NCBI GenBank assembly: GCA_943788505.1
Contig: CALSQR010000002.1
Coordinates: 569,213 to 633,212, forward strand
DNA length: 64,000 nucleotides
Reading direction: 5' to 3'
Origin: an uncultured bacterium
GTDB taxonomy: Bacteria > Bacteroidota > Rhodothermia > Rhodothermales > UBA10348
The notes beneath the pieces were generated by a model. That model had not been told where the DNA came from, made no database searches, and saw only the letters and a list, made by a program, of their open reading frames with translations. Shown here piece after piece: positions 7,212 through 58,663 of this stretch (position 1 is the stretch's first letter; each line of letters starts with the position of its first letter). The position numbers and the translations under genes were made by a program.

Positions 7212-7215
7212 ATTC

Positions 7216-36810: not shown

Positions 36811-36964
36811 GGTTGGGAGACTAGCATCGGATTGTTTGGTGTTGATTTGCTCGGTATTGAATAGATGCAAATGACCAAGGATAGCCGCATTGCGTGAGTA
36901 ACAGTTGGCGGAGTCTGGTTACCCAAAGCCACACGCTACTTGATTACCGTTCACGATTGGTTTT

Positions 36965-39454: not shown

Positions 39455-40110
39455 GCGCAAACGAACCCAGCAGCTTGATCATTGGAATTGACCTCTCAGG
39501 CCCATCAAATCCCGCTGACACTGTTGTAAGCCTATTCAGCGAATACACTGATCGGCTCGAATATATCGGGCATTATGAGCATTGCTCTGACGCTGACATC
39601 GTCCGACTCCTAGAAAAAGCCTCGTCCCACCTTCATGTGACCATCGGATTAGATGCACCGTTGTCCTATCAGGACGGAGGCGGAGATCGGATGAGCGATC
39701 GGTCGCTCAGAAAAGTACTCATGGGTGCTGGGATGCCCTCTGGAACGGTCATGACGCCAACCATGACGCGCATGGCGTATCTGACGTTGCGGGGAATCAC
39801 GATAGCGCGTCTTCTACGATCATTACATGCTGATGCTAACATCGTTGAAGTCCATCCGCATGGCAGTATGGCCTTAGCAGGTGCGCCCATCGAATTGGTC
39901 CGTACTATGAAAGCGGAGGCAGCAAGCCGTCAGGGACTTGCTCATTGGCTTGGCTCACAAGGCCTTGCTAGACTACCTGAAGGGCCACATTCAGATCACG
40001 TGATTGCCTCAATTGGCTGTGCTTTTGCAGCCTGGCTCTGGCAAACCGGCCGAAGTACTTGGAAAGCTGCAGCTATCCCGCCTCATCACCCGTTTGACTT
40101 CGCCTGCTGA
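39451..40110 (+). CDS. DUF429-like protein (predicted RNase-H-fold)
   Basis: IGIDLSGPSN N-terminus. The start overlaps the upstream stop in an ATGA arrangement. Confidence 0.45.
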   Translation: MSANEPSSLIIGIDLSGPSNPADTVVSLFSEYTDRLEYIGHYEHCSDADIVRLLEKASSHLHVTIGLDAPLSYQDGGGDRMSDRSLRKVLMGAGMPSGTVMTPTMTRMAYLTLRGITIARLLRSLHADANIVEVHPHGSMALAGAPIELVRTMKAEAASRQGLAHWLGSQGLARLPEGPHSDHVIASIGCAFAAWLWQTGRSTWKAAAIPPHHPFDFAC

Positions 40111-40137
40111 ACGACTTCTCTATCCCGTTTAAAACGT

Positions 40138-41376
40138 ATGACCCCACACGTTCTCATTATTGGTGCCGGCCTTTCCGGACTAAACTGCGCTCTTGAGCTG
40201 CAGAAAAAGGATATACCGTTCACTATTCTGGACTCCTCTGATGCGGTCGGTGGCCGTATCAGGACGGATAACATCGATGGCTTCCGCCTTGATCGGGGAT
40301 TTCAGATTTTTCTTACCGCCTACCCCGAAGCCCGCGCAGTACTGGATTATGATGAGCTGAATCTGCATTCATTTAGACCCGGGGCTATGGTTCGGCTAAA
40401 CGGGAAATTCCGCCTTTTATCGGACCCCCTGCGTCGTCCCCAAGATGTCTTTTCAACCCTGTTTTCCGGAGTGGGCACACTGCGAGATAAATTGAAGGTC
40501 GCAATGATGAGGAGGACTCAAGATGGTAGCATGTCTACCGGTCCAGAAACCTCCATCATGGAAAAGCTGCAGACGACTTGGGGCTTTTCGGCTGGTATGA
40601 TCGATAGTTTTTTCAAGCCCTTCCTTGGGGGCATCACGCTCGATGAAAACCTGGGTACGTCTAGCCGTTTCTTCGATTTTGTGATGGGAATGTTTACTAA
40701 AGGGAAGGCTTCCTTTCCAGCAGGGGGCATGCAAGCCATTCCAGAGCAAATGGCAGCCAAACTGCCAGCCGAATCCATCATTCTAAAGGCTCGCGTGACA
40801 GCCATCAACGGATCCCACGAGGTCATTTTAGAAGATGGCCGGCGATTCGAAGGAAGCCACGTCGTACTTGCCACAGGCATGACCGATGCTCTGGCACTGG
40901 ACCCTGGAGCTACTGAGCGCACATGGAACGGTACCACGTGTCACTACTTCGCAGCCGACGCAGCGCCGTTCAATGAACCGGTCCTCCTATTAAATGGTGA
41001 GCCCGGCCGAAGTAGCGGATCAATCAATTCCATCGTCGTCCCGTCGAATGTGGCGCCTGGGTATGCGCCAAAGGGACAGCATCTCATCTGCCTTAGTAGT
41101 ATTGGCGTTGACGAGTCAGATGCTTCGAAACATCGTGAGCGGGTCCTAACGGAGGCTGCCTCCTGGTTTGGAGACGAGGTAAGTACCTGGCGGCATCTCC
41201 AGACCTACCGAATTACCCATGCTCTTCCGCGCATGGATACGCTTCCCGATTCTCCTCCTATCAGAGTGCTTGACTCGGGAATAATCCAATGTGGCGACCA
41301 TCTTTCCACCTCTTCCATTAATGGTGCATTGGCCTCTGGACGCCATGCAGCGGACCATCTACAACAGACTCTTTGA
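40138..41376 (+). CDS. NAD(P)/FAD-dependent oxidoreductase (amine-oxidase/desaturase-like)
   Basis: Rossmann motif VLIIGAGLSGLNCALEL followed by LDSSDAVGGRIRT. Confidence 0.7.
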   Translation: MTPHVLIIGAGLSGLNCALELQKKDIPFTILDSSDAVGGRIRTDNIDGFRLDRGFQIFLTAYPEARAVLDYDELNLHSFRPGAMVRLNGKFRLLSDPLRRPQDVFSTLFSGVGTLRDKLKVAMMRRTQDGSMSTGPETSIMEKLQTTWGFSAGMIDSFFKPFLGGITLDENLGTSSRFFDFVMGMFTKGKASFPAGGMQAIPEQMAAKLPAESIILKARVTAINGSHEVILEDGRRFEGSHVVLATGMTDALALDPGATERTWNGTTCHYFAADAAPFNEPVLLLNGEPGRSSGSINSIVVPSNVAPGYAPKGQHLICLSSIGVDESDASKHRERVLTEAASWFGDEVSTWRHLQTYRITHALPRMDTLPDSPPIRVLDSGIIQCGDHLSTSSINGALASGRHAADHLQQTL

Positions 41377-43151: not shown

Positions 43152-43781
43152 TTGATTTACATGACATCCGAATTCATGCTCTACCTGCGCCTGGGATTTG
43201 AACATATTTCCGACCTGAATGGATATGATCACATCCTTTTCGTGATCGCACTGGCTGCCGTCTACCCGTTGAAGGAGTGGCGGCATCTTCTAATTCTCGT
43301 GACCGCATTCACGATTGGCCACTCCATCACACTTGCCATGGCCACGCTTGGCTGGCTCGCAGTGGATTCCGATCTGATTGAAATGCTGATCCCTGTCACC
43401 ATTTTCATCACGGCCGTCATCAACATAGCAGAACGGTTTGCCAGTGACGCAGAAAAGGCGTTGCAACGAGATTGGCGTATGAAATATGCGCTGGCGCTGG
43501 GATTCGGCCTGATCCACGGCTTGGGCTTTTCCAACTACCTTCGCGCGTTACTCGGGACAGGCGAAAACCTTGTCTTACCATTGTTTTCATTCAATGTTGG
43601 ATTAGAAATTGGCCAACTTGTCATACTTGTCATTACATTTGTAATATCGGCCGGAGTGATCTGGATTTTAGACTGGGTTCTGAACCGGTTCAATCGGCCC
43701 GTTGCGAATACCCAGCGTAACTGGGCAGCGGGGCTTTCTGTTGTGATTGCCATCCTTGCCCTGACCATGATATGGTCCTAG
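43152..43781 (+). CDS. HupE/UreJ-family membrane protein
   Basis: 209 aa, about 6 TM, with a His-containing N-terminal motif (GFEHI..DHILF). Confidence 0.55.
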   Translation: MIYMTSEFMLYLRLGFEHISDLNGYDHILFVIALAAVYPLKEWRHLLILVTAFTIGHSITLAMATLGWLAVDSDLIEMLIPVTIFITAVINIAERFASDAEKALQRDWRMKYALALGFGLIHGLGFSNYLRALLGTGENLVLPLFSFNVGLEIGQLVILVITFVISAGVIWILDWVLNRFNRPVANTQRNWAAGLSVVIAILALTMIWS

Positions 43782-43847
43782 CCAGGTCCTTCTTAGGATC
43801 CGTAAGACCTACTGAGAGGCTGCACTGCAACCGTTAACCATACGCAC

Positions 43848-45986
43848 GTGCCAGCTATGAAAGCTTATCTGTTTACGACTTTCACCCTCCTATTGGTCGT
43901 CCTTTTCGCCCTCCCAACTGCCTCCGCTCAGAATTGGCGGAATATCGAAGGGGACATAGCGTCAGGCAACCATTCGATATTCAGGCCGCTTGCTGATTGG
44001 CCAGATGCAAACGATTACCGCTCCGCTTCCGGTGCTCCAGGAGCTCGCTACTGGCAACAACGCGCCGACTATGTGATCGAGGCTGAGATCGACACTGTAA
44101 ACCATGTAATGACAGGTAGCGAACGGATTACGTATCACAATAACTCTCCGGACGAACTTGGATTCCTGTGGGTTCAGCTCGACCAGAACGTGCGCTCACT
44201 CGAGCATAGTCGTTCCTATCAGATGCAGGGTGCCTTGCCGGAAAACATCAGTCCAGGATTCAGACGCTTCGTCGGCGTTGGACAATTTGATGGCGGGTAC
44301 GAGATAACCCGAGTCCAGTTGGTAGATGATGCTGGTCGCCTCGTCGACACATCCTTCCGAATCCGCGACACCATTATGCGTGTCAATCTTGCCGAACCAC
44401 TAGCTGCTGGATCAAGCATGTCCTTTGATATCGATTGGTCCTATCGCATTCCGGACAGCGGACGTGGAGGAAAGGAAATGGTGCGCGATGGTTGGCTCTA
44501 TGAAATGGCTCAGTGGTTTCCCCGCATGTCTGTTTATGACGATGTGAATGGCTGGCAAACGGAGCAATTCATCGGGCGAGGAGAATTCTACCTCAACTTC
44601 GGCGATTATGACGTTAAGTTAACCGTTCCTTGGAATCACATCGTTGATGCAACGGGCGAATTACAGAACCCGGAAGATGTACTTACCGAAGACCAAATGC
44701 AGCGTCTGGAAGCTGCGTACCAGAGCGAAGAACCTGTATATATCGTTGGGCCAGATGAGGTTATGACACCAGAGTCTCGTCCAGTTCAGCGCGGTATGTT
44801 GACTTGGCATTACGTAGCCAAAGATGTACGCGACTTCGCATGGGCCTCATCCAAAACCGATATATGGGATGCTGCCGGATACGACTACAAAGATGGCGGC
44901 CCCATTGTGAAAGCCCACTCCTTGTATCCAAAAGACGCGTCTCCACTGTGGGACAAGGTCTCTACACGTGCAACGATCGTGACACTCGAGTCTTATGGCG
45001 ACATGTCGCTTCGCTATCCGTATCCCAAGGCCGTTAACGTGAACGGACCCGTAGGAGGTATGGAATACCCGATGATTGCTTTCTGTGGTGCCCGTCCGGG
45101 ACCCGATGGAACGTATTCGGACGGAGTAGAGCGCGCCCTGATTGGCGTTACGATTCACGAAGTTGGTCATAACTGGGTGCCAATGATCATCGCGTCGGAT
45201 GAACGCAAGTGGACCTGGATGGATGAAGGGCTAAACACCTTCTTGCAGTACTACGCAGAGCAGATATATGCCATGAAGTTTAATGGCACGGATGTTTGGA
45301 CGCAGACCACGGATGGTACCTACCCATCACGCCGTGGCCCCGCACCACTGATTGTACCGTACATGAAGGACCCCAACCAGGTGCCCATCATGACCGAGTC
45401 CGATCTGATCCAGAATAACTTTGGCAACAACGGCTATGCCAAGCCAGCAGCTGGCCTGTACATGCTTCGCGAGCATATTCTGGGCGCGGATGTTTTTGAT
45501 GACGCCTTCCGCGAGTACTCACGCCGGTGGGCCTTCCGCCATCCACAGCCTGCCGACTTCTTCCGCTCCATGGAGGAAGCAGCCGGAGAGAACTTGAATT
45601 GGTTCTGGAGAAGCTGGTTCTACACGACGTATGCAAACGACCAGGCATTAGCCGCCGTCACGGAACAGTCCGCTGATTCTCTACTCGGCTCGACCGAAAA
45701 CGGGGAGTGGTACTACCGTGTCAAAGTGGACAACGAAGGCCAGCAAATCATGCCGATTCATTTGCGTGTGACGTACGAAGATGGATCGGATGATATGATC
45801 CAGCTTCCGGCTGATGTTTGGCGTAGCAATGAACTCACCTTTACTAAAGGATTCTTCTCCGACAAGAAAGTCATGAAAGTGGAGCTCGATCCGCTCGGTG
45901 CCTTCGCTGATATCGATCCGAGCGACAACGAATGGAACGCACCCGAGGTCGAGACGGAACAGGAAGAAACCGGAGGTGGTTTCTGA
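43848..45986 (+). CDS. Secreted M1-family zinc metallopeptidase
   Basis: Signal peptide, a GAMEN-like GGMEYPM and HEVGHNW-x17-E (HExxH+E) zinc-binding arrangement. Confidence 0.7.
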   Translation: MPAMKAYLFTTFTLLLVVLFALPTASAQNWRNIEGDIASGNHSIFRPLADWPDANDYRSASGAPGARYWQQRADYVIEAEIDTVNHVMTGSERITYHNNSPDELGFLWVQLDQNVRSLEHSRSYQMQGALPENISPGFRRFVGVGQFDGGYEITRVQLVDDAGRLVDTSFRIRDTIMRVNLAEPLAAGSSMSFDIDWSYRIPDSGRGGKEMVRDGWLYEMAQWFPRMSVYDDVNGWQTEQFIGRGEFYLNFGDYDVKLTVPWNHIVDATGELQNPEDVLTEDQMQRLEAAYQSEEPVYIVGPDEVMTPESRPVQRGMLTWHYVAKDVRDFAWASSKTDIWDAAGYDYKDGGPIVKAHSLYPKDASPLWDKVSTRATIVTLESYGDMSLRYPYPKAVNVNGPVGGMEYPMIAFCGARPGPDGTYSDGVERALIGVTIHEVGHNWVPMIIASDERKWTWMDEGLNTFLQYYAEQIYAMKFNGTDVWTQTTDGTYPSRRGPAPLIVPYMKDPNQVPIMTESDLIQNNFGNNGYAKPAAGLYMLREHILGADVFDDAFREYSRRWAFRHPQPADFFRSMEEAAGENLNWFWRSWFYTTYANDQALAAVTEQSADSLLGSTENGEWYYRVKVDNEGQQIMPIHLRVTYEDGSDDMIQLPADVWRSNELTFTKGFFSDKKVMKVELDPLGAFADIDPSDNEWNAPEVETEQEETGGGF

Positions 45987-46006
45987 TCTGACATCCTATT
46001 GCGGAT

Positions 46007-46048
46007 AATAGGTGCGGCGGCCTGCGGCCGCCGCACCTATTCCGTTTA
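46007..46048 (+). terminator. Rho-independent terminator (16-bp perfect stem)
   Basis: aataggtgcggcggcc tgc ggccgccgcacctatt followed by ccgttt. Confidence 0.55.
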
Positions 46049-46052
46049 TACC

Positions 46053-46595
46053 ATGCTTCAACTGCTGACATCCATATTCCTCGCCCTTCTCCTCATCGTT
46101 AACGGCGACACCTCACCTGCTGCATTAAGCGATGATGAGGCCCCTCGTCACGATTTCCACGTTACGTATAGTCGGATGGCCGTCGAAAACGACATGGCCG
46201 TAGTCCGAATTCGCTTATTCAAGGACGACCTTTCTGAAGCGCTCAGCAAACGGCTGGATCGAGACGTTATCGTAGATATTTCCCCTGAAAGCGACTCGTT
46301 ATTTCAGGTGTACTTCAATGAAAGCGTTTCACTGGTCGTTGGCGAGGAAACCTTGGCGGGCAACCTGGTCGGCAGCGGGGAAGAGTACGTTGGAAAAGAG
46401 CCAATGTGGTGGTATCTACTCGAATTCAAGGCCGATGGCCCCATTGAAGGATTCACTATCTCCCAGAAAATCCTCTCTGAGATGTTTCCCGAGCAAAAAA
46501 ACATTGTCCAGGTTCAACATTTCCCCAGCGAGAAGACGTACTCCTTGTATTGTGTTGAGGACTCATGGGAATACGAAGTCTCTTTTACGGACTGA
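46053..46595 (+). CDS. Hypothetical secreted protein
   Basis: Start moved to MLQLLTSIFLALLLIVNG, a signal peptide, because the track start overlaps the terminator. Confidence 0.3.
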   Translation: MLQLLTSIFLALLLIVNGDTSPAALSDDEAPRHDFHVTYSRMAVENDMAVVRIRLFKDDLSEALSKRLDRDVIVDISPESDSLFQVYFNESVSLVVGEETLAGNLVGSGEEYVGKEPMWWYLLEFKADGPIEGFTISQKILSEMFPEQKNIVQVQHFPSEKTYSLYCVEDSWEYEVSFTD

Positions 46596-46709: not shown

Positions 46710-47810
46710 GTGCCTGTTTACCTTCATGCTGCCCGGACCATCGTCCCGGAAACCTCCTATACCCAGGATGAGGCAGGCGAAGTCATGCTACGCTCGCTGG
46801 ATCCTGAAAGCCGTGCTGGACGGCTTGTCCGGCGCATCTACCGGCATTCTGGCATCGAGAAACGGCACAGCGTCATTCGCGACTTGAAAGAGCCGGCCGA
46901 TGGCAACTTGTTCTTTTCGAAGGAGGGCAAGTTCTTATCCCCCTCTACCGGCACTCGGAATGACGTCTACGCCCGGGAGTCACGTCCGCTCTTTGTAGCA
47001 GCTGCGAAGGCTGCCATCGACGCGAGCCCCGAGCATGAGGCCTATGACGTTACGCATGTCATTACGGTGTCCTGCACCGGATTCAATGCGCCCGGACCCG
47101 ACTATTTTATTGTTCGAGACCTGGGTTTGAAGCCGGAAGTCCGCCGCTTTCACATCGGCTTTATGGGTTGCTATGCCGCGTTCCCAGCGCTCCGCATGGC
47201 CCAGGCCTTCTGTGAAGCAGACCCGAATGCGGTTGTGTTGATCGTCTGTTTGGAGCTCTGCTCCTTGCATTTGGAACCGTCCGAAGAAATCGACGACATC
47301 CTGGCCTTTTCTGTGTTCGCAGATGGTGCTGCCGGTGTCATTGTAAGCGCCCGAGAACCCGGTTCGAAGGGCGCGCTGCGCATTGACGCTCTAGAATCAA
47401 CTATCGCACCGGACAGCGAAAGTGACATGGCCTGGACGATTGGAGATAAAGGATTCAAAATGGTCCTCTCCACGTATGTGCCGAAGGTCCTGGAATCCAA
47501 CGTGAAAGACGTCGTGGATAGCGTCCTCACGCCATCGGGACATACGATGGAAGACATCGACCAATGGGCGATCCACCCCGGCGGTCGCGCCATTCTTGAC
47601 CATGTGGCTAGTGGTCTTGACCTAGCTGCCGATGCACTCGATACCTCACGCGCCGTTCTACGCGATTATGGCAATATGAGCAGCGCAACCGTCCTGTTCG
47701 TACTCTCTGCCATGCTGGATGACGAAGCCGTCAAGGAAGATGACCATATTTTGGCGATGGCGTTCGGACCCGGCCTCACCGTTGAAACAGGTCTTTTTAC
47801 ACGCGTCTGA
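46710..47810 (+). CDS. Type III polyketide synthase (chalcone/stilbene synthase family)
   Basis: Active-site Cys context (VSCTGFNAPGPD), the GFMGCYAAFPALRMA segment and His/Asn regions (IHPGGRAILD, FGPGLT). Confidence 0.85.
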   Translation: MPVYLHAARTIVPETSYTQDEAGEVMLRSLDPESRAGRLVRRIYRHSGIEKRHSVIRDLKEPADGNLFFSKEGKFLSPSTGTRNDVYARESRPLFVAAAKAAIDASPEHEAYDVTHVITVSCTGFNAPGPDYFIVRDLGLKPEVRRFHIGFMGCYAAFPALRMAQAFCEADPNAVVLIVCLELCSLHLEPSEEIDDILAFSVFADGAAGVIVSAREPGSKGALRIDALESTIAPDSESDMAWTIGDKGFKMVLSTYVPKVLESNVKDVVDSVLTPSGHTMEDIDQWAIHPGGRAILDHVASGLDLAADALDTSRAVLRDYGNMSSATVLFVLSAMLDDEAVKEDDHILAMAFGPGLTVETGLFTRV

Positions 47811-48506
47811 ATGCCCACTCTGTTCTTGTCATCCCGCCGCGAGGATCTCGTCGAGCTCATGGACGATCCGGAGTGCGACAGGGAGTTGCTGGAAAACACC
47901 TACCGGTGGTTCGAAAAACTGAACCCTCTTCTGGCCAGGTGGCGAAGCGTCTACTGCCATAGAATTCGCCCCTTGCTCGACCCAACCACGTCGACCCGCA
48001 TTCTTGATGTTGGTTGCGGTGGTGGCGACTTGGCCAGGCAGTTGGCTCGATGGGCAGCACAAGATGGCCTGAAGGCTGACATCACAGGCATCGACCCCGA
48101 CCCCAGAGCGATACACTTCGCCCAGTCTCGACCGAATCCAGACGATGTCCACTTCTTGGAACTCCATTCAGCGGATCTGGCGCGCCGAAATGCGACGTTC
48201 GATATTATCCTGTCCAACCACGTCCTGCATCATATCAAAGATGAGCATTTGGTCGGGCTGATGAAGGATTGCGAAGCCTTGAACGCCCGGCTCGTGATCC
48301 ACAATGACATCAATCGAGATGACCTTGCATGGCTGCTGTTCTGGCCAGTTGGCCTCGTTTGTAGGAAGTCCTTCATCTTGTCCGATGGTTTGCGCTCCAT
48401 CCGCCGTTCCCGGACCGCCCACGAACTCGACCGGATCGCACAAACCGGCTGGTCAGTCGAGCGTCTTTTCCCGTTCCGCTGTCTCCTCATCTTTGAATCG
48501 GAATGA
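47811..48506 (+). CDS. SAM-dependent methyltransferase
   Basis: Motif I ILDVGCGGGDLARQL. The gene directly abuts the PKS stop codon. Confidence 0.7.
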   Translation: MPTLFLSSRREDLVELMDDPECDRELLENTYRWFEKLNPLLARWRSVYCHRIRPLLDPTTSTRILDVGCGGGDLARQLARWAAQDGLKADITGIDPDPRAIHFAQSRPNPDDVHFLELHSADLARRNATFDIILSNHVLHHIKDEHLVGLMKDCEALNARLVIHNDINRDDLAWLLFWPVGLVCRKSFILSDGLRSIRRSRTAHELDRIAQTGWSVERLFPFRCLLIFESE

Positions 48507-49648
48507 CCAGTAACGTGATCATTGTGGGTGGTGGGCCAATCGGGCTATATCTGGGGTGTCTTCTCCGCAATAAGGGACTCGAATGTCTGATTCTCGAAAA
48601 GCGGGTCGAGCGCAGCACCCACTCTCGCTCCATCGGCATCCACCCACCCGCGCTTCGCCAGTTGGCACAAGTCGGCATTGCAGATGATCTCGTCAAAAGA
48701 GGCATCAGGGTTAAGGAGGGTGATGGCTATCTCGGCTCCAAGCCCCTGGGAAGCTTGCCCTTCTCATTGTTGCCGCCTCCTTACTCATTTGTGCTGACCC
48801 TTCCACAACACGAAACGGAATCGCTCCTGGAAGCCCGCTACATTGAGCTTGGCGGTCGATTGGAGAAAGGAGTCAGTGTGACAGGACTGGAACAGGACGC
48901 GGGCTCGGTCGATGTCATCGCAACGAGATCTTCAGGCGAAGAGAGGCTAACCTGCGATTGGCTCATCGGCTGTGATGGCCGAAACAGCACGGTCCGGGGC
49001 CTCCTTTCCATTCCGATGCTCGGATCGTCCTACAACGACCATTACATGATGGGAGACTTTGAGGAGGCTCGAGAGCAGTCCGCTCGCGCAGCAATCCATC
49101 TGGGTTCGAAAGGGGTCGTAGAGTCGTTCCCCTTGGGCCATGGGCTCCGACGATGGGTCGCACGGGTCGAGCAGCCCCACAAGAGCGCTACCCATGCAGA
49201 TCTCGTGGGCTTGCTCACTAGGCACGTTCAAGAACGGACTGGTGTGACTCTGGCTCATGACGCCTGTATCATGACAAGTGCCTTCACAGCCGAACGATTC
49301 GAAGCCAAGGAATTCGCTTCCGGCCGCGTTATCCTAGCAGGCGATGCCGCGCACATCATCAGCCCCATTGGCGGACAGGGCATGAATCTCGGATGGCTGG
49401 ATGCCCAACTACTTGCTGAACTGCTTCACTCGAAGGACGGAGTTGCACTCAAACCCGAAGCAATTCAAGCAGCCTACGAGCCCGTTCGACGCCGATCTTT
49501 CCGCCGGGCTGCCCGCCGAGCAGAACTGAATATGTGGATGGGGCGGTCAGGATGGCTCTACCCCGCGCGTGCGCTCATGGCGCGACTGATACTGAGCCGA
49601 CCATTGCGCGGCTATTTCGTTCGGCTATTCACTATGCAGGACCTTTGA
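48503..49648 (+). CDS. FAD-dependent monooxygenase (UbiH/aromatic-ring hydroxylase family)
   Basis: Rossmann motif VIIVGGGPIGLYLGCLL, a DG motif (CDGRNSTVR) and the GD motif (AGDAAHIISPIGGQGMNLG). The start overlaps the methyltransferase stop in an ATGA arrangement. Confidence 0.8.
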   Translation: MTSNVIIVGGGPIGLYLGCLLRNKGLECLILEKRVERSTHSRSIGIHPPALRQLAQVGIADDLVKRGIRVKEGDGYLGSKPLGSLPFSLLPPPYSFVLTLPQHETESLLEARYIELGGRLEKGVSVTGLEQDAGSVDVIATRSSGEERLTCDWLIGCDGRNSTVRGLLSIPMLGSSYNDHYMMGDFEEAREQSARAAIHLGSKGVVESFPLGHGLRRWVARVEQPHKSATHADLVGLLTRHVQERTGVTLAHDACIMTSAFTAERFEAKEFASGRVILAGDAAHIISPIGGQGMNLGWLDAQLLAELLHSKDGVALKPEAIQAAYEPVRRRSFRRAARRAELNMWMGRSGWLYPARALMARLILSRPLRGYFVRLFTMQDL

Positions 49649-49780: not shown

Positions 49781-50308
49781 TTGAACACACCCTCGGACCG
49801 ACAAAGCAGCCTCATTCGAGCTACCCGACCGGACGACCTCCAAGAGCTCCTTTCAATTGAATCAAGCTCATTCAGTGGCGACAGAATTTCGTCCCGCTCC
49901 TTTGTGCGATTTCTGCGGCAGCCCTCCTCAAGGATTCTAGTCGCTGAAATGTCAGACCACAGCATCACTGGATATGCCCTGGTCCTGCTTCGTCGTAATT
50001 CCCGTAAAGCACGGCTTTATTCAATTGCTGTTGACCCCGTTCATCGTGGCTCTGGAGTTGGTACGCAGCTTTTAGGAGCCATTGAGTCCACCGTACGCGA
50101 AATGCACTGCCTCGAACTATCGTTAGAAGTTCGGACGGACAATACTGCTGCCATCGACATATATCAGCGGCACGGGTTTGTGGTCAGCTCTACGAAGCCG
50201 AATTACTACGAGGATGGAGCCGGAGCACTCGTTCTGCAAAAGTCGTTTTCTACGTTCGTTCCAGGACACCATCATGATAGGTCCCTCCCGGCGTGCGGTT
50301 GTCGTTGA
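49781..50308 (+). CDS. GNAT-family N-acetyltransferase (RimI-like)
   Basis: Motif A: IAVDPVHRGSGVGTQLL. Confidence 0.65.
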   Translation: MNTPSDRQSSLIRATRPDDLQELLSIESSSFSGDRISSRSFVRFLRQPSSRILVAEMSDHSITGYALVLLRRNSRKARLYSIAVDPVHRGSGVGTQLLGAIESTVREMHCLELSLEVRTDNTAAIDIYQRHGFVVSSTKPNYYEDGAGALVLQKSFSTFVPGHHHDRSLPACGCR

Positions 50309-50550: not shown

Positions 50551-50576
50551 GGTTGCATGAACCGGTTGCATGAACC
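50551..50576. repeat. Tandem 13-bp direct repeat (x2)
   Basis: ggttgcatgaacc ggttgcatgaacc. Confidence 0.4.
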
Positions 50577-50593
50577 ACCCGTCCTTCGTTCTA

Positions 50594-50629
50594 CAAAAAA
50601 ACGCTCTTCCCGATATCGAAAAGAGCGTT
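50594..50629 (-). terminator. Rho-independent terminator on minus strand, immediately 3' of the tRNA fragment
   Basis: Stem aacgctctt / aagagcgtt with an A7 run on the plus strand, which is a U7 tail on minus-strand RNA. Confidence 0.55.
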
Positions 50630-50651
50630 CGTGACCGCTAGATGGTCAATG

Positions 50652-50696
50652 TGGAGCCAATGAGCGGACTCGAACCGCTGACCTGCTCATTACGAA
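50652..50696 (-). other. tRNA 3'-half fragment (anticodon loop to CCA; anticodon-loop sequence UUCGUAA suggests tRNA-Thr(CGU)), attR-like
   Basis: Minus-strand sequence ttcgtaa-TGAGC-AGGTC-AGCGG-TTCGAGT-CCGCT-CATTGGC-T-CCA. The T-arm, 3' acceptor strand and CCA are perfect, but there is no D-arm or 5' acceptor strand upstream. Confidence 0.6.
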
Positions 50697-51376
50697 AAAG
50701 TGGCGACGGTGGCGACAATGGCCCCGAATAGCCATATACGCCTATTCCGATATGTATACCAGGGTAGATCAGGGTAGCTTTGGACGATAAGTCGGGAACC
50801 CCTTCGGGAACCACTTCAAGCACCCATAAGAACTTCGGGGCGGGAACGACGAATCGAATCCAACGATCCTGAAAATACTCTGATCAGAAAACAGCGACTG
50901 CCTGTAGACCTGCTTTCCTAGCCACGAATTTCCACTATTGCGCGGCTGAAAAGAAGGAAAGCTTACAAGTTCTCACAAATTTCCGAGGTCACTCAAGAAG
51001 GTTTCGATCAATCGTTTGCTGGACTTATTCAAGTAAGCCCAGAACCCTACAATAATGATCGCGGTGTAAGCTTCCCTACAGTGGGCGAACTCGAATGGTG
51101 GAAAAACCCCTTACCTTCGAACCATGCTGAATTTCCGACTCAGTGAGACGAAGATCGTTTCCGTCCGCGTCCGCAATGCGCGCGGAGAAAAGGTCAACCC
51201 CCGCTGGAGCACCCTCCATCAAGAGAACCATCACCGTTCTCAATTTCATTGACGCATGTGTGACAATGTACACGGCAATCGTCCGTGAGATTGCCGGAAA
51301 GGACGCCAAAAATGATCTGGGTAACAGTTTTCCGATATTCAGCGGCAGGGCGATCAGCGTGTGGCGACTTGAGAGG

Positions 51377-51718
51377 CTACACGGCATCGTCACCTCTTTC
51401 ACCAGAAGATACGCGGACTGCATCCAGTACCGGCGTGACGTAGATCTTACCGTCCCCACGGAGACCCGTATGGGCCTCTCGTTGGATGATTTCAATGATC
51501 TCATCCACCATGCTGTCCTCGACCACGGTTTCGATCTTGACAACGGCGACGTAATCCACCAAGTCTTCGGTAAAGCTGTGGGGCACGTCTTGAGCCCGAC
51601 TACGGCCGAATCCTTTCATGTCGCAGATACTCACTCCCGTGAGCCCTTCAATGTGGTGAAAGGCACGCGTCACGGCGGAGAGCTTGTGTGGCTTGATGTA
51701 GGCTTGGATCTGTTTCAT
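51377..51718 (-). CDS. P-II family (GlnB-like) signal-transduction protein, czc-associated
   Basis: 113 aa closely matching GlnB-like motifs (IKPHKL, KGFGRSRAQ, GDGKIYVTPVLDAVRV..GE.GDDA). The stop overlaps the czcA start. Confidence 0.8.
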   Translation of the reverse strand: MKQIQAYIKPHKLSAVTRAFHHIEGLTGVSICDMKGFGRSRAQDVPHSFTEDLVDYVAVVKIETVVEDSMVDEIIEIIQREAHTGLRGDGKIYVTPVLDAVRVSSGERGDDAV

Positions 51719-54700
51719 GGTTTTCTAGTGACTTGAGTAATGGATTCGGATGGTGGGGGACCGTCGCTGAACCATCGGTAAAGTGCCGGCACGACCAGCA
51801 GCGTCAGCACGGTGGAGGTGACAAGGCCGCCGACCACGACGGTTGCCAAGGGGCGCTGGACTTCGCTTCCCGTCGTCGTGGAAAAGAGGAGCGGAATGAG
51901 TCCGAGCGCGGTAGTAACAGCCGTCATAAGGACCGGGCGCAGGCGCAGGAGGGCACCGTCCACACTTGCCCGGTCCATAGGCGTGCCGTCCCGAATGAGC
52001 TGGTTGAGGTAGGTGACCAGCACCATTCCATTTTCCAGCGCGATCCCGAATAAGGCAATGAACCCGACCGACGCGGGGACTGAAAGGTTCTGGCCCGTTA
52101 TCCAGAGCGCTACAATGCCGCCCACAAGCGCCAGCGGAATGTTGAGCATGATGAGCGCTGCGTTCTTCAGCGAGTTGAAACTCGCGTACAGCATGAGCAA
52201 CACGATCAGAAGCGTGATGGGCACGACCACCATGAGCCGCTTGTTGGCTTCCTGTTGCAACCGGAATTGCCCACCCCATGTGGTAAGATAACCGGTCGGG
52301 AGCTCCACCTCCGAACGGATGACCTTTTGGGCCTCCGCTACGAATGAGCCAATGTCCCTGCCCTCCACATTCAGCTGGACGGTAATGAAGCGCTGGTTGT
52401 CCTGCCTCGTGATTTGTCGCGGTCCGACGACCTCGACAATCGTGGCCAGCGCGCCCAGTGGGACGGTACCTCCTCCGGGGAGCGGAATGAGGAGATTGGA
52501 AATGGCCTCCGGCGTTGAGCGCGCCTCCTCTTCGAAGCGGACATAGATGGGGAATCGGCGGATGCCTTCAAAAATCTGACCAGCCTCGGCCCCTCCAATG
52601 GCCGTGGCCACGGTACGCTGCACATCCGCCACGTTGATACCGTACCGGGCGATGGCTTGGCGATCGATGTCAATTTGGAGCTGGGGCGTGCCCGTGATTT
52701 GATCGGCTTGAACGTCGGCGGCGCCTTCCACGGTGTTCAAGGCAGCTGCAATTTCATCCGCCTTTGATTTGAGCAGGTCGAGATCGTCGCCAAACAGTTT
52801 GATAGCAAGCTCGGCCTTTACACCCTCGAGGAGTTCATCCACCGTCATCTGGATCGGCTGGCTGAAGTTTGTCAATACGCCCGGCACCTCACCCAACTCG
52901 TCGCGAATGGCGGAGAGCAGTTCGGCTTGGTTGTCAAACCGCCACTCGTCTTCCGGCGATAGCACCAGGTATATTTCGGCGGAGTTGATGGGGTCGGCGT
53001 GTGCGCCCACTTCGCCGCGACCGATGCGACTGACGACATCCGTGATTTCAGGAATGGCCATCAAGCGGCGTTCCACACGCAGCGTGGTCGCTTTGCTCTC
53101 CGTGATCGAAATGGACGGCGCCATGGTCAATCGCATGACGATGGTCCCCTCCTGAAGGGTTGGCGTGAATTCACTCCCGAGCTGCGGGAAGACGACGGCG
53201 CCGACTACAAGGAGCCCGGCAGCGAGGCCGACAGCCCAAGACCGGTGCCGGACAAAGGTGGCCACGATGGGGCGGTACCAGCCCGTAATCCGGTCCAGCA
53301 GTCGGTTGGCCAAGGGTTCCTTTCCGGGCTTTCCGTTGCTGGACTGCGTCTGTGGGGAGCGCATGAAGAAATGCGAGAGTACCGGGGCCAGCACAATCGC
53401 ATACACGAGCGATCCCAGCATGGCCAGCGCGACCGTGTAGGCCAACGGCCGAAAGGTCTTACCCTCGACGCCCTGCAGTGTGAAGAGAGGCAGGAATACA
53501 ACGATGATAATGAGCACGGCGAATGCCACGGGTCGTGCTACTTCGGCACAGGCCCGCGCCACGACGTGTACGCGGGGCTCTTCCGGACCGGCCTCTTTGA
53601 GCATCCTGTCCACGTTTTCAACCATGACAATGGCCCCGTCCACCATCATTCCGATGGCGATGGCCAAGCCTCCAAGGCTCATGAGGTTCGCCGATATGTT
53701 GAACTGCCCCATGAAGATGGCCGCAAACAGGACCGAGAACGGAATGGCAAGGGCGACCACGACGCTCGGACGCCACGAACCCATGAAAGCCACCAGAACC
53801 AGAAGAACCAGGAGAATTCCCTGCCAGAGCGCGGTTGTGACCGTCGCGACGGCAGCCTCCACGAGCGTTTTCTGCTCGTAGTAGGGGACGATGTTGACGC
53901 CCTCGGGAAGCGCCTCGTTGATGGCAGCGAGTCTGGTCTCGACACGGCCAATGACGGTCGAGGAATTGGTGCCATACAGCTTGACGACCATACCCGAGAC
54001 GACTTCTTCAACGCCGCCGCGTGTCTGCAGGCCGCGCCGGATGGCGCCGCCAACCTGGACGGTGGCCACATCTTTCACGAAAACCGGCGTGCCGTCGGCC
54101 GTTCTGACCACAACGTTTTCGAGGTCGGTTATGCCAGTGGCGAGTCCGACGGATCGGACCACGAACTGCTCCGCATTCTGCTCGATGTACTGCGCGCCAA
54201 CATTGAGATTGTTTTCCTCGAGCGCATGTGTCACCTCTGCCAGCGTGACGCGGTACTGGAGTAGGGCCTCCGGCCGGACCACGACCTGGAATTGCCGCTC
54301 GTATCCCCCGATTCCAAGGACCTCTGTCACCCCAGGAACGGTCTGGAGACTCGTTTTCACGATCCAGTCCTGCATCGTGCGCAGTTCCTCGAGCGAATAT
54401 TGGCCTGTCGTATCGTCCAGATAGTAGAACAGGACCAGGCCCATTCCAGTCGAAATCGGTCCCATTTCGGGCTCGCCGAACCCGGGAGGGATGGTCTCAC
54501 GCGCCTCGTTGAGCCGCTCTCCGACGAGTTGGCGGGCGAAGTAAATGTCCGTTCCGTCTTCGAAATAGACGTTGACGACGGACAGGCCGAAGTTCGAAAC
54601 AGAGCGGACCTGCTCCACATTGGGAAGCCCGTTCATGGCGGTCTCGACGGGATACGTCACGTAACGCTCAACTTCCGCGGGGGCGAGGCCTTCCGTGACG

Positions 54701-54888
54701 GTAAAGACCTGGACGAGAGAGGGAGAAACGTCAGGAAAGGCGTCGATCGGGAGGCCCCGATACGTCCACCAACCGGCGACAATAACGATGGCACCGAGGA
54801 CGAGCACGAGGAGCTTGCTCTGCAGCGTAAATTGGATAATTTTGTTCATATCAGTGGGCATGGCCTCCTTCCAATTCGCTCTTACCAA
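51715..54888 (-). CDS. czcA: Heavy-metal efflux RND transporter, CzcA/CusA family
   Basis: 1057 aa, 12 TM and two large periplasmic loops, with typical HME-RND segments (AIGMMVDGAIVMVEN, LALENGMVLV). Confidence 0.9.
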   Translation of the reverse strand: MVRANWKEAMPTDMNKIIQFTLQSKLLVLVLGAIVIVAGWWTYRGLPIDAFPDVSPSLVQVFTVTEGLAPAEVERYVTYPVETAMNGLPNVEQVRSVSNFGLSVVNVYFEDGTDIYFARQLVGERLNEARETIPPGFGEPEMGPISTGMGLVLFYYLDDTTGQYSLEELRTMQDWIVKTSLQTVPGVTEVLGIGGYERQFQVVVRPEALLQYRVTLAEVTHALEENNLNVGAQYIEQNAEQFVVRSVGLATGITDLENVVVRTADGTPVFVKDVATVQVGGAIRRGLQTRGGVEEVVSGMVVKLYGTNSSTVIGRVETRLAAINEALPEGVNIVPYYEQKTLVEAAVATVTTALWQGILLVLLVLVAFMGSWRPSVVVALAIPFSVLFAAIFMGQFNISANLMSLGGLAIAIGMMVDGAIVMVENVDRMLKEAGPEEPRVHVVARACAEVARPVAFAVLIIIVVFLPLFTLQGVEGKTFRPLAYTVALAMLGSLVYAIVLAPVLSHFFMRSPQTQSSNGKPGKEPLANRLLDRITGWYRPIVATFVRHRSWAVGLAAGLLVVGAVVFPQLGSEFTPTLQEGTIVMRLTMAPSISITESKATTLRVERRLMAIPEITDVVSRIGRGEVGAHADPINSAEIYLVLSPEDEWRFDNQAELLSAIRDELGEVPGVLTNFSQPIQMTVDELLEGVKAELAIKLFGDDLDLLKSKADEIAAALNTVEGAADVQADQITGTPQLQIDIDRQAIARYGINVADVQRTVATAIGGAEAGQIFEGIRRFPIYVRFEEEARSTPEAISNLLIPLPGGGTVPLGALATIVEVVGPRQITRQDNQRFITVQLNVEGRDIGSFVAEAQKVIRSEVELPTGYLTTWGGQFRLQQEANKRLMVVVPITLLIVLLMLYASFNSLKNAALIMLNIPLALVGGIVALWITGQNLSVPASVGFIALFGIALENGMVLVTYLNQLIRDGTPMDRASVDGALLRLRPVLMTAVTTALGLIPLLFSTTTGSEVQRPLATVVVGGLVTSTVLTLLVVPALYRWFSDGPPPSESITQVTRKP

Positions 54889-56107
54889 GCTCCGCCTTCA
54901 GCGCAAACACCCCGGAGGCGACGTAGCGCTCGCCTGGCTCCAGGCCACTTGAAATGGCCACCTGACCACCCGCGCGGTCGCCTGCTTGGACAGCACGCGG
55001 CTTGAACCCTTCCTCTGTCTGCACGAATACGACGGTCCTGCCCTCGACATCGACCAGCGCCGTGGCAGGGATCAACACGGCTACCTCAACGGCATTGATG
55101 GTCAGTAGACCGGTCACGAACTGACCGGGTCGCAGTCTGCCGGCTGGATTCGGGACAACGGTGCGGGCAATGGCTGTTCGGGTCTCCTCCCCGACTATGG
55201 GGCGGACATAGGAGATGGTTCCGCGAGTGCGGGGCTGCCCCGCACCGGCGTCAATGACAACTTCCTGACCCTCCCGGACGGTACCCAGATCCCGCTGATA
55301 AACCGAGAGGTCAGCCCAGACGGTGGACAGATCGGCCACTTCGAACGCCTCGGTGGCAGCTTCGACGGCCTCCCCGACTACGATGTGTTTCTCGATTACG
55401 CTTCCCGAAATGGGAGCGGTAAGGGGGTAGGCCACCAAGCTGCGTTCTTCTTCGCGAGGCAACGCTTCGATGTAGTCATCAGAAAAACCCAGTGCAATGA
55501 GTTTTTGACGCGCGGACCGCGTCCGGATACGCGCTTCGGCGTTCGCTTGTCGGGCTTCCAGGAAGTCGGCCTCGGAGGTGATTTCCTGATTATACAGTCG
55601 TTCTTCCCGCTCGAATGACGCGCGGGCCAGTTCCTGACGTTCGATTGCCGCGAGATAGTCCGCCTTGAGGTCTGCCAGCTCCCGGCTCTCAATGACCGCC
55701 ATGGTTTGACCGGCCTGGACATAGCTGCCCACGTTCGCACTTACGCTCCTGACAACGCCGGAAACGCGAGGGGTAACATGGGCATACCGGTCTTCGTTGG
55801 CACGTATTTCACCAGGAAGATTCTTCTCGACCGACATGGTGCCCGGTCCGGCTGTTTGGACATCAATCCCGAACTCCTCGATCTCCTCGGCGGTCAGCGT
55901 GACGAGATCTACTGCCTCGCCCGTTCCTTCGCCCGCCTGTTCGACTATCGGGACAGCAATCCTGTTTTCTGCGGTCCCGTACGGGCCGGGCGCAAGCCAC
56001 CAGACGACAAGGACGATTGCCAACAGTCCGATTCCCGTGGCGACCAGCTTCGCCCGACGGCTCATGGACTTCAGTTGGGTTATGGTGTTCTTGGTATTCA
56101 TGGTCAA
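54851..56107 (-). CDS. czcB: RND efflux membrane-fusion (periplasmic adaptor) protein, CzcB-like
   Basis: N-terminal TM helix, coiled-coil and beta-barrel MFP architecture. The gene overlaps the czcA start. Confidence 0.8.
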   Translation of the reverse strand: MTMNTKNTITQLKSMSRRAKLVATGIGLLAIVLVVWWLAPGPYGTAENRIAVPIVEQAGEGTGEAVDLVTLTAEEIEEFGIDVQTAGPGTMSVEKNLPGEIRANEDRYAHVTPRVSGVVRSVSANVGSYVQAGQTMAVIESRELADLKADYLAAIERQELARASFEREERLYNQEITSEADFLEARQANAEARIRTRSARQKLIALGFSDDYIEALPREEERSLVAYPLTAPISGSVIEKHIVVGEAVEAATEAFEVADLSTVWADLSVYQRDLGTVREGQEVVIDAGAGQPRTRGTISYVRPIVGEETRTAIARTVVPNPAGRLRPGQFVTGLLTINAVEVAVLIPATALVDVEGRTVVFVQTEEGFKPRAVQAGDRAGGQVAISSGLEPGERYVASGVFALKAELGKSELEGGHAH

Positions 56108-57474
56108 TTCTGGTTCGGGAGGATGCTACGAAGGGCATCTTCCACGGCGTGGATAGGGGTGGCAATAAGCCGCTCGACAGCTGCGCGCGCCTGGTGATAG
56201 TCTGCCAAGGCGTCGATGTAGGCGTTCTGCGTCTCGATGAGGGCACTCTGTGCGTCAAGTACGTTGAGCAGGTCGAACTCTCCTTCGTGGTAGCCCGTGA
56301 GGATGCCTTCAGAAGCTGCTCTGGCATTAGGAAGCGCATCGTCCCGCAGCATGCGCGCGGCATCGACCGACACAGCCAGCGTGCCGTAAAGGGTGGTGAG
56401 CTCCCACTCGGCACGCAGCAACGCCGATTCAGCGTCAGCTTCTACGGCCGAAATGCGTGCCTCGGCGGCCCGGATGGCACCTCTGTTCGTGTCGAGAAAG
56501 GGGATCGGAATCGAAATGCCCGATGTGACGGCGGCCTCTCCCACTTCATTGAAATAGGCTGCGCCGAAACGGAACGTGGGGTCCGGAATTCGGCTGGCGC
56601 GTTCCAAGCGGGCGTGTGCACGTGCCTCGTCAAGGATGGCGGCGTATTGCGCCAATTCCGGATTGAGTTGCAGGAGCGGGGTGAGTCTCTCGAGTTCTGG
56701 CACCGGGGCGAGCGTGGAGAGGTCCCCCTCCACGTCGATGGCAGCCGCTTCACCCCCGAAAGTGGAAGCGAGGCGGGCTCGGGCACTGAGCACGGCCCGG
56801 CGCGCGCGCTCAAGGACGGTCACGGCCGTCACGGCCGCAACGCGAGCCCGGCGAGCCTCTAGTGGAGAGACGGCTCCTTCGGCCGCTCGACGTTCAACCG
56901 CATCGGCCAGCCGTCTGGCAATCTCTCCCTGCTCTTCTGCGAGAGCAAGCCGCGCTTCTGCCGCCAACACGGACGTGAAAGCCTGACGGACCTCCGTGAC
57001 GACATTTAGCCGCGTCGATTCGACGTCCCACGCGGCACGGTCCGAGCTGCGCGCGGCCACATCGGCGCGGGCGCGACGGTCGCCGCCCAGCTCCAATGTT
57101 TGTGAGAATCCTCCGCCGACTTCCAGTGACTGGACGCCTGACCGCGATCCACTACCGCCAAACTCATGGACCCCGGCTTCCAGCTCCGGGTTGGGCGGCC
57201 GGCCCGCCTGGTAGGCGTCGTGTTCCCGGGCTTGCAGTTCGAAGGAAGCGGACCGGAGGGTCGGATTGTGTTGGATGGCGAGGGCGACTGCCTCGGCCAG
57301 GGTGAGCGGGCCTTCCAGCGTGACCGGGTCGTCGATACTCTCCACCGGGTGCGCGGAAATGAGGGGACGGGGCTCCGGATAGGAGGCGTTGTACGAGGAT
57401 GCGCAGCCAGCAGACATGCCAGCCAGCACAACCAGGACCGACGCAAGCGTCGGCCCGACAGGGTTGCGGATCAT
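56104..57474 (-). CDS. czcC: Outer-membrane efflux protein, TolC/CzcC family (lipoprotein)
   Basis: Lipobox (LAGMSAGC) and two long helical repeats typical of OEP. The gene overlaps the czcB start. Confidence 0.75.
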   Translation of the reverse strand: MIRNPVGPTLASVLVVLAGMSAGCASSYNASYPEPRPLISAHPVESIDDPVTLEGPLTLAEAVALAIQHNPTLRSASFELQAREHDAYQAGRPPNPELEAGVHEFGGSGSRSGVQSLEVGGGFSQTLELGGDRRARADVAARSSDRAAWDVESTRLNVVTEVRQAFTSVLAAEARLALAEEQGEIARRLADAVERRAAEGAVSPLEARRARVAAVTAVTVLERARRAVLSARARLASTFGGEAAAIDVEGDLSTLAPVPELERLTPLLQLNPELAQYAAILDEARAHARLERASRIPDPTFRFGAAYFNEVGEAAVTSGISIPIPFLDTNRGAIRAAEARISAVEADAESALLRAEWELTTLYGTLAVSVDAARMLRDDALPNARAASEGILTGYHEGEFDLLNVLDAQSALIETQNAYIDALADYHQARAAVERLIATPIHAVEDALRSILPNQN

Positions 57475-57561
57475 AGGACTTGTATTCTTGATCGTGTATG
57501 ATTCCGCCAGGAACGCTCACGAACGTGAGCGCCAGACGGATGAACGGGGATCAAGAAAGGC

Positions 57562-57921
57562 TCAGATCAGCAAGACGACGCTGCGATGGAGCGGGGTTTG
57601 TCCGTACGTCGCAGGAGGCGCGGTACGGGCTGGGGGAAGGGAATGAACCGGGGCCGGGAGGTACTCCGCGACCGCGATGATTGCAAACGATGCAGGACCA
57701 CTTTCCGTCTTGAACGAGCTGCACTTGGCATCATTGCCCGTCGGAATGGGTACATCCACGCAGTCTTCTGCATGTTCGATTTCCGCTTCCACATGCCCGT
57801 CCATCCCGAAACAAAGCACGACGTTGCTGACGTGCGGCCCGAGGGGGGCGAGCGTCATAAGCGCCATCAGCAGCCAGGCTACTGGGGCCAAACGCGCCTT
57901 GATGGTCTGGATATGGGGCAT
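57562..57921 (-). CDS. Small secreted His/Cys-containing protein (possible periplasmic metal-binding), first gene of czc operon
   Basis: Start placed at MPHIQ..., giving a signal peptide. Contains HVSNVVLCFGMDGHVEAEIEHAEDC. Confidence 0.3.
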   Translation of the reverse strand: MPHIQTIKARLAPVAWLLMALMTLAPLGPHVSNVVLCFGMDGHVEAEIEHAEDCVDVPIPTGNDAKCSSFKTESGPASFAIIAVAEYLPAPVHSLPPARTAPPATYGQTPLHRSVVLLI

Positions 57922-58196
57922 GAAAAGGACGGGTGGTCTGGGTAGTCGGTCACACCGACGATCCCCTTGGTAGCGTTTCCATGGAGCAAAGTTCCTGTGT
58001 TCGCGTTTCCGTGACATCCGGCAGCGGCGCCTGCCAGCAGTCAGCAGTCAGCTGAGAGTGTTTTTCACCGTATTGCATTGTACTGGATTCATATGGATGC
58101 ATATTCCGCTGTTCCTGTCCACCCATTCTGATCCAACAGTTCTAGTAATTCCGACTGTTTGTTACCAGGACGCAGCATGTTGATGATGTTGGAGCT

Positions 58197-58337
58197 TCAG
58201 GATTTCTCCTGGATCGATTCAGGTTTCACGCCATTGCGTTTTCGAAGCGAATCGTGATTGAGCGTAATTCGGTTTGCGTTGTGTACGAGTCGATCCAAGA
58301 TGGCGTCTGCCATTGTGGCATCACCTATTGCAGTGTG
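58197..58337 (-). pseudogene. IstB-like (IS21 helper ATPase) C-terminal fragment
   Basis: The minus-frame translation ...[34 protein letters not shown]...* matches the IstB C-terminus (ILDRLLHH...I.G.SYRLK). No upstream ATPase core is present. Confidence 0.45.
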
Positions 58338-58453
58338 TCATCCTGCAACTGTCTTTCGTTGAGAATTGTGACGACGCCCATATTGAACACGAGACCCAGA
58401 GCGTATCCTCCGGCCTTTCCTACGCATTGAGCTCCTCCCGTTAATTTACCCAG

Positions 58454-58663
58454 TCAGAAGTAGAGAATCGGGCGTCTTTCGGTGATATTCGTGGGCATAT
58501 GCTGATATGGCTTGGACTCTTTCAGGGGCTGTAGCTCGTCCAGCCGCTTGATGAACAGCAGATAGGTCAACTGTTCGATGACCGACAGCGGGTTCGAGAT
58601 GCCGCCAGACCACATCGTGTCCCATATGCGGTCGACCTTGGATTTGAGTTCGCCTGTGATCAT
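58454..58663 (-). pseudogene. N-terminal fragment of a type I R-M HsdM-like / N6-adenine DNA methyltransferase
   Basis: 69 aa reading ELKSKVDRIWDTMWSGGISNPLSVIEQLTYLLFIKRLDE, which fits the HsdM N-terminal domain. The ORF stops before any catalytic domain. Confidence 0.5.

Follow-up and report, generated by a model that had tools for sequence, protein, structure and literature searches.

Alkylresorcinol-derived lipids alter bacterial membranes: they act in the encystment of Azotobacter, in the tolerance of Streptomyces to beta-lactams, and as alternative electron carriers in mycobacterial biofilms. Cassettes of the general kind that makes them are already known from Streptomyces, mycobacteria, cyanobacteria and planctomycetes. 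In the Streptomyces griseus precedent, a resorcinol is methylated, then hydroxylated and finally turned into a quinone (PMC9927152; PMC6669644), and srs-like clusters have been described as carrying an "FAD-dependent oxygenase" (PMC8779670). Recombinant HidA of the hid system methylates pentadecylresorcinol in vitro, and HidB has been proposed to be a ring hydroxylase (PMC6836626). Co-expression of t3pks, mtr and fdo of Gimesia maris gave methyl-alkylresorcinols, detected as a shift of +14 Da (PMC10896814). Here a cassette of this kind is described in a 64,000-nucleotide stretch of DNA (hereafter the window) from an uncultured bacterium of the Rhodothermales (contig CALSQR010000002.1, positions 569,213 to 633,212). 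Its type III polyketide synthase (PKS), S-adenosylmethionine (SAM)-dependent methyltransferase (MT) and FAD-dependent monooxygenase (FMO) form an operon that most likely makes a methylated, hydroxylated long-chain phenolic membrane lipid, and the same architecture is found in many public genomes.

The cassette consists of three genes:

46710..47810, + strand: type III PKS gene (366 aa, GTG start; both Pfam chalcone/stilbene synthase halves)
47811..48506, + strand: class-I SAM-dependent MT gene (231 aa; NCBIfam NF004851/PRK06202)
48503..49648, + strand: group-A FAD-dependent aromatic monooxygenase (FMO) gene (381 aa; PF01494)

These open reading frames match exactly the interval 46710-49648 that had been assigned to the trio in a sequence-only reading of the window, and both junctions described there can be read in the sequence. 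At 47808-47813 the letters GTC TGA|ATG CCC place the PKS stop codon directly against the MT start, and at 48503-48506 an ATGA overlap sets the FMO start over the MT stop codon. The three genes are intact, co-directional and translationally coupled.

For comparison, an alignment of 31 PKS homologues served to scan one genome per species; the best 80 loci were kept, and the window proteins were used as tblastn queries against them. The 74 loci whose downstream DNA is long enough are considered informative. PKS, MT and FMO genes follow one another in this order on one strand in 61 of these 74; an MT gene is kept behind the PKS in 62 loci and the FMO as third gene in 61. The aligned segments of adjacent genes lie about 19 and 35 nt apart (medians). 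The trio loci belong to five or more phyla. Their sources are Balneolales, Trueperaceae/Deinococcus, Gemmatimonadota, Opitutales and Micrococcales (Arthrobacter, Curtobacterium, Paenarthrobacter), together with metagenome-assembled genomes (MAGs) that lack a classification. Micrococcales loci carry the trio with 46-50% PKS/MT identity to the window. Chromosome II of Deinococcus radiodurans (L083) has it with 52% identity in the PKS and 48% in the MT, under the PGAP labels type III PKS, class I SAM-dependent methyltransferase and NAD(P)/FAD-dependent oxidoreductase, and its trio belongs to one clade with the window cassette; there, a glycosyltransferase gene and a PLD-like gene come after the trio (L083 6839-9579). 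Clustering of the open reading frames around the 61 trio loci revealed no fourth universally conserved neighbour, only lineage-specific ones, and because the neighbours vary by lineage, the three genes alone are the conserved module. The compact PKS-MT-FMO unit proposed earlier is thus borne out, and its recurrence is far above chance. That the three genes are unrelated chance neighbours is effectively refuted, since they are coupled by abutting stop and start codons and by the ATGA overlap, and keep their order across phyla while the flanks change.

The genes that accompany the PKS elsewhere bear on its product. In eleven loci, a same-clade PKS (48-52% identity) occurs without MT and FMO, and several such loci (L057, L058, L060, L068 and others) appear to have a YceI-like lipoprotein gene upstream and genes for an MMPL-family transporter and a UbiE-type methyltransferase downstream, an alternative module that is Pfam-confirmed only for L058 (7373-12789). 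A MATE efflux gene is located directly upstream of the PKS in 29 loci (e.g. L080 6594-7982). In a Trueperaceae MAG that has PKS and FMO and lacks the MT, these two genes are followed by a UbiA prenyltransferase gene (L006 10321-11205). Altogether, the YceI, MMPL, MATE and UbiA neighbours of same-clade PKS genes argue for a lipidic product.

The PKS matches Chal_sti_synt_N (PF00195; 5e-24, 85.4 bits) and Chal_sti_synt_C (PF02797; 2e-29, 103 bits) at a cut-off of 27. The Cys/His/Asn contexts reported earlier are present as GFMGC (Cys154), WAIHPGG (His289) and GNMSS (Asn322); the three residues align with the catalytic triad of Mycobacterium tuberculosis PKS18, the sequence of which was taken from the PDB alignment, and are invariant in the 31 homologues. 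The GTG start is credible because the predicted N-terminus, MPVYLH..TIVPETSY, agrees with the N-terminal consensus of 30 homologues. In the PDB, PKS18 is the best full-length match (167 bits), and tetrahydroxynaphthalene (THN) synthase (THNS, 1U0M) scores 141 bits. Among NCBIfam models the best match is DpgA (NF042429; E 1e-52). This match and that to THN synthase could be taken to indicate a small-starter enzyme, which would use malonyl-CoA/acetyl-CoA to form THN/flaviolin, phloroglucinol or 3,5-dihydroxyphenylacetyl-CoA for later methylation and hydroxylation. Such an enzyme is very unlikely here: the DpgA score of 178.8 bits is far under the cut-off of 425, and no DpgB/C/D-type, P450 or cupin partner genes were found near the cassette. 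The lipid-handling neighbours in related loci, the residue Trp242 and the grouping of the PKS with proven long-chain alkylresorcinol synthases, the latter two set out below, also speak against it.

When the PDB was searched with PKS residues 220-298, the top match was the ArsC G284W mutant (3VS9). Trp242 of the window enzyme aligns with the Trp of 3VS9, the Gly of wild-type ArsC (3VS8), the Trp of PKS11 and the Leu of PKS18, that is, with the ArsB Trp281/ArsC Gly284 switch, a residue reported to decide between resorcinol and pyrone formation (PMC9927152; PMC5916927). It is invariant in all relatives examined, and a Trp is also found in four planctomycetal PKSs that make C15/C17 alkylresorcinols in Corynebacterium glutamicum (PMC10896814). 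An alkylpyrone synthase that closes its product by lactonization, like PKS18, ArsC, BpsA and DquA, and whose pyrones would then be O-methylated and hydroxylated, has to be weighed at this point. PKS18, the best full-length PDB match, is an alkylpyrone synthase, many bacterial enzymes produce mixtures of resorcinols and pyrones, and DquA makes only pyrones although it has the "resorcinol" Trp (PMC9827899). On the other side stand the Trp242 that is invariant in the clade where PKS18 has Leu and wild-type ArsC has Gly, the partner enzymes HidA/HidB, SrsB/SrsC and G. maris mtr, all precedents for action on resorcinols, and the consideration that a phenol is the most sensible substrate for a ring hydroxylase. 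Long-chain alkylpyrones are considered an unlikely outcome for this cassette. Fold comparison would not discriminate between the rival readings, as type III PKSs all resemble one another too closely.

A phylogeny of the PKS was built with planctomycetal comparison sequences taken as codon-optimized genes from the supplement of PMC10896814 (Milke et al. 2024); these carry noise from optical character recognition (OCR) and were frame-corrected line by line, so that identities to them are underestimates, and the neighbour-joining (NJ) tree is coarse. In PMC10896814 the planctomycetal PKSs are placed in a HidC-like, malonyl-specific clade and the "S. ferox" enzyme with SrsA-type methylmalonyl users, which makes the latter a proxy for the SrsA clade. 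The window PKS is 26% identical to this OCR-noisy S. ferox sequence and 31.5% identical to PKS18. In the NJ tree (362 columns, 100 bootstraps), which uses these proxy sequences, the window clade groups with the HidC-like enzymes at 100%, and S. ferox and PKS18 fall outside. Clustering of the PKS with non-lipid synthases and a lack of co-conservation of the three genes had been named earlier as results that would speak against a phenolic lipid. Neither was seen: the trio is strongly co-conserved, and the PKS shows alkylresorcinol-synthase features in Trp242 and its weak DpgA score, with RppA/THN enzymes compared only by PDB bit score. Within the clade, the closest PKSs are those of L081, L001 and L002, uncultured Bacteroidetes/Rhodothermia-like MAGs (63-66% identity; 91-95% bootstrap), and the tree as a whole is not obviously congruent with taxonomy.

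The MT matches Methyltransf_25 (9e-16) and also Methyltransf_23/11 in Pfam, carries motif I as VGCGGGD at residues 67-73, and passes the NCBIfam model NF004851/PRK06202 (279.1 bits against a cut-off of 243), a family without a functional name at NCBI. Its nearest solved structures are weak UbiG matches, and no isoprenylcysteine carboxyl methyltransferase (ICMT) domain was detected in it by the Pfam scan. The mtr protein of G. maris, frame-corrected from the supplement, likewise has NF004851 as its best match (153 bits, E 6e-45) despite OCR damage, and it aligns with the window MT end to end and colinearly (E 9e-10). The SrsB counterpart in an srs-like cluster whose proteins are 51-63% identical to those of the srs operon is annotated as ICMT (PMC6669644), an annotation also given in a cluster reported to be 100% similar to the S. 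griseus alkylresorcinol cluster (PMC8779670), and DquB and BpsB are ICMT-like as well (PMC9827899). On this evidence the MT is predicted to be of the HidA/planctomycetal type, not of the SrsB type.

These results bear on how far the cassette may be called srsABC-like. A true orthologue of srsABC/pkqABC would have a methylmalonyl-using PKS of the SrsA type, with SrsB and SrsC orthologues, and would end in the methylated alkylquinones of those operons ("polyketide quinones"). The cassette agrees with them in enzyme classes and gene order, operons of this order are reported to be conserved in Actinomycetes (PMC9927152), and the Micrococcales loci with the trio at 46-50% PKS/MT identity would fit such a relationship. 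However, the SrsB type is annotated as ICMT and the window MT is a class-I PRK06202 protein lacking that domain, and the PKS is nearer to HidC-like enzymes (33-35% identity, with 100% bootstrap for the grouping) than to the S. ferox proxy. Orthology in this strict sense seems decidedly improbable. The earlier statement that the composition is exactly that of srsABC holds for enzyme classes and gene order; it does not hold for the MT family and, judged by the SrsA-clade proxy, probably not for the PKS.

The FMO belongs to Pfam FAD_binding_3 (PF01494; 183 bits, 1.3e-53) and shows the motifs GGGPIG (9-14), CDGRNS (157-162) and GDAAH (280-284). Its closest PDB chains are rifampin monooxygenase (139 bits), OxyS, MtmOIV and PgaE/CabE (106-139 bits), and VisC follows with 76. 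These solved relatives are hydroxylases of phenolic polyketides, which counts in favour of a phenolic product. The Ubi-hydroxylase model TIGR01988 (UbiH/UbiF/VisC/COQ6) gives 118.9 bits, below its cut-off of 224.65. The "UbiH-type" label that had been given to this gene holds loosely at best: the Ubi cut-off is missed, and the PDB neighbours are Rox, OxyS and PgaE. The fdo protein of G. maris best matches TIGR02032 (geranylgeranyl-reductase-like) and PF01494 weakly; the 25 best NCBIfam matches of the window FMO do not include TIGR02032, and the two proteins align at the FAD motifs only. By these comparisons the cassette would consist of a PKS sister to HidC-like enzymes, a HidA-type MT and a PHBH-type phenol hydroxylase acting in the SrsC/HidB role.

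The locus is probably best explained as an operon of three genes that makes a tailored phenolic lipid, an O-methylated, ring-hydroxylated alkylresorcinol derivative. The sequence data show the gene structure, the domains, the catalytic residues and the co-conservation of the trio across phyla; the chemistry of all steps we infer as follows. The PKS would be primed with a long-chain fatty acyl thioester from the fatty-acid pool of the cell, as suggested by its family, active site and context, and would add three malonyl-derived units on Cys154. The tetraketide would be closed by a C2-C7 aldol condensation to give a 5-alkylresorcinol or an alkylresorcylic acid. The MT, a soluble enzyme of the PRK06202 family, may then O-methylate one or both ring hydroxyls, by homology with G. 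maris mtr/HidA, and the FMO may hydroxylate the electron-rich ring in an FAD/NAD(P)H-dependent manner, judging from its family and from the SrsC/HidB precedents. The outcome could be a methoxy-alkylhydroquinone, oxidizable to an alkyl-methoxy-benzoquinone, or a hierridin-like methoxyphenol. This product would be held in or near the membrane, where membrane robustness, antioxidant action and service as an auxiliary redox carrier are candidate roles. The methylated or oxidized alkylresorcinol class put forward earlier remains the most likely product class.

Several points weigh against a tailored alkylresorcinol as the product. The identity of the PKS to characterized HidC-like alkylresorcinol synthases is about 33-35%, although the sequences used are OCR-noisy and the true values somewhat higher. 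The switch Trp is not decisive, as the case of DquA shows. Judged by their model matches and alignment, the window FMO and G. maris fdo are in different subfamilies. Scanning the surroundings of the cassette for promoters and terminators yielded no more matches than in shuffled sequence, so that neither could be assigned, and folding of the sequence preceding the PKS gene and following the FMO gene revealed no significant structure. Starter length, the choice of malonyl or methylmalonyl units, the number of methyl groups and the position of hydroxylation cannot be read from the sequence. Finally, no member of the window PKS clade with a known product was found in literature searches. The last result agrees, for this PKS clade, with the earlier suggestion that the cassette is probably uncharacterized; the cassette itself is widespread and not confined to one lineage.

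GC content is 0.57 in the cassette (0.61-0.68 at third codon positions, GC3) and 0.52 in the surrounding core genes in the left part of the window. Its GC, the patchy spread across phyla and a PKS tree that is not obviously taxonomy-congruent are compatible with old horizontal spread. It may be proposed, as a tentative idea that is more doubtful than not by a wide measure, that cassettes with a PKS, a PRK06202-type MT and a PHBH-type hydroxylase in this order form a distinct, uncharacterized phenolic-lipid clade that has passed by horizontal transfer between stress-tolerant lineages (Deinococcus/Trueperaceae, Gemmatimonadota, halophilic Balneolales, Micrococcales). The clade would make a methoxy-alkyl-benzoquinone serving as auxiliary membrane redox carrier or antioxidant, a non-actinobacterial "polyketide quinone" and not an antibiotic-like metabolite. 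The cassette is real but fairly ordinary, and represents a routine biosynthetic-cluster call for this window. Its interest comes from the PKS clade, which is large, reaches several phyla and, in the literature searches, yielded no characterized member; a single identified product would serve to annotate hundreds of genomes. A tractable host exists in D. radiodurans, a model organism with the same trio.

Upstream of the cassette lies a block with genes for HupE_UreJ_2, an M1-family peptidase and DUF6702 (window 43152-46595). Block and cassette together are syntenic in L081 (GCA_028284865.1), where the block lies at 4462-7912, and L001 shares the arrangement from the peptidase onward, with its part of the block at 70-2566; in the tblastn search of the 80 loci, HupE, M1 peptidase and DUF6702 had no match in loci other than these two. 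Between L001 and the window the peptidase is 82% identical, the PKS 64%, and the MT and FMO 52%; therefore the cassette diverges faster than its flank. Between the stop of the M1 peptidase (45986) and the ATG of DUF6702 (46053), about 660 nt before the PKS, a hairpin is located at ~46008-46043, with a perfect 15-bp GC-rich stem, a 3-nt loop, a folding energy of -39.5 kcal/mol and z = -6.7. It lacks a T-run, was not called by the terminator scan and is not a canonical intrinsic terminator. Of the "strong terminator" formerly placed at 46007-46048, then, the hairpin exists, within the upstream peptidase block, and the terminator does not follow from it. The small secreted protein gene said to flank the cassette also exists, namely the DUF6702 gene with a probable signal peptide, but it belongs to the peptidase block and not to the cassette. 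Both hairpin and DUF6702 were rejected as parts of the cluster, DUF6702 travelling with HupE/M1 peptidase in L081 and L001. Further to the left, 36235-41376 encodes an Rrf2-family regulator, an unusual 829-aa fusion of a DNA-photolyase-like N-terminal domain with an amine-oxidase/FAD part, a DUF429 protein and a second flavin amine oxidase.

A GNAT gene downstream of the FMO (49781-50308) is absent from all 80 related loci and was rejected on that ground as a possible fourth member of the cassette. On the minus strand at 50650-50700 there is the 3' half of a tRNA, with a variable loop AGGTC, T-arm, acceptor strand and CCA, and a Thr-CGT-like anticodon loop; neither ARAGORN nor Rfam calls this fragment as a tRNA. 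Just beyond it, also on the minus strand, 50599-50630 forms a terminator-like hairpin with a 14-bp stem and a T tract, adjoining a short tandem duplication at 50551-50577 (GGTTGCATGAACC x2). To the right of the tRNA fragment (51377-63029) a P-II gene and an RND efflux set (AcrB/CzcA-like, MFP, OMF) occupy a region with a GC of 0.61 against a background of 0.52, and beyond the efflux set are HNH/NUMOD4, PD-(D/E)XK and RadC genes and a tyrosine integrase gene (62046-63029). This part of the window looks like an integrated genomic island with an att-like remnant about 1 kb downstream of the cassette; no second copy of the att-like tRNA-fragment site was found within the window.

Compared with known systems, the cassette shares features with several groups. 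Bacillus subtilis bpsAB and Sporomusaceae dquAB resemble it in having a type III PKS gene and, after it, one for a methyltransferase that modifies long-chain phenolic lipids (PMC9827899). Unlike the window, they have two genes, an ICMT-family methyltransferase and no hydroxylase, and make mainly pyrones. ArsB/ArsC of Azotobacter vinelandii and PKS11/PKS18 of M. tuberculosis have the same fold and catalytic triad as the window PKS, at about 31% identity; however, the Ars enzymes have the type I fatty acid synthase (FAS)-like partners ArsA/D, which the cassette lacks, and PKS18 has Leu at the switch position occupied by Trp242.

The srsABC operon of S. griseus (SGR_470-472) and the mycobacterial/Streptomyces pkqABC operons have the gene order of the window, in which PKS, methyltransferase and flavoprotein hydroxylase follow each other, and share with its PKS the Cys-His-Asn triad and the resorcinol-associated Trp. 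Their logic, from alkylresorcinol through an O-methyl ether and hydroxylation to an alkylquinone, is proposed for the window as well. They differ in the methyltransferase, the SrsB type being annotated as ICMT, by the annotation of close homologues, and the window MT being a class-I PRK06202 protein; in addition, the window PKS appears to lie outside the SrsA/FtpA/PKS10 methylmalonyl clade, as judged by the S. ferox proxy alone. The name srsABC is therefore right by analogy and gene order, and the MT is not a member of the family that the name implies. A useful correction follows, in which the cassette is described as a mix of HidA-type MT and PHBH-type hydroxylase and not as an srs orthologue.

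Cyanobium hidABC and the planctomycetal mtr-fdo-t3pks clusters (G. maris, Rhodopirellula baltica) likewise combine a type III PKS, a SAM methyltransferase and an FAD oxidoreductase. Their PKSs make C15/C17 alkylresorcinols, are about 33-35% identical to the window PKS and are its sisters in the rough tree, and G. maris mtr and the window MT share NF004851 as best match and a full-length alignment. They differ in the oxidoreductase, which in G. maris is geranylgeranyl-reductase-like (TIGR02032) and in the window a PHBH-type protein of PF01494, and in the usual gene order, with methyltransferase and oxidoreductase before the PKS. The order found in the window, with hidC followed by hidA and hidB, nevertheless also occurs in cyanobacteria (PMC8086630).

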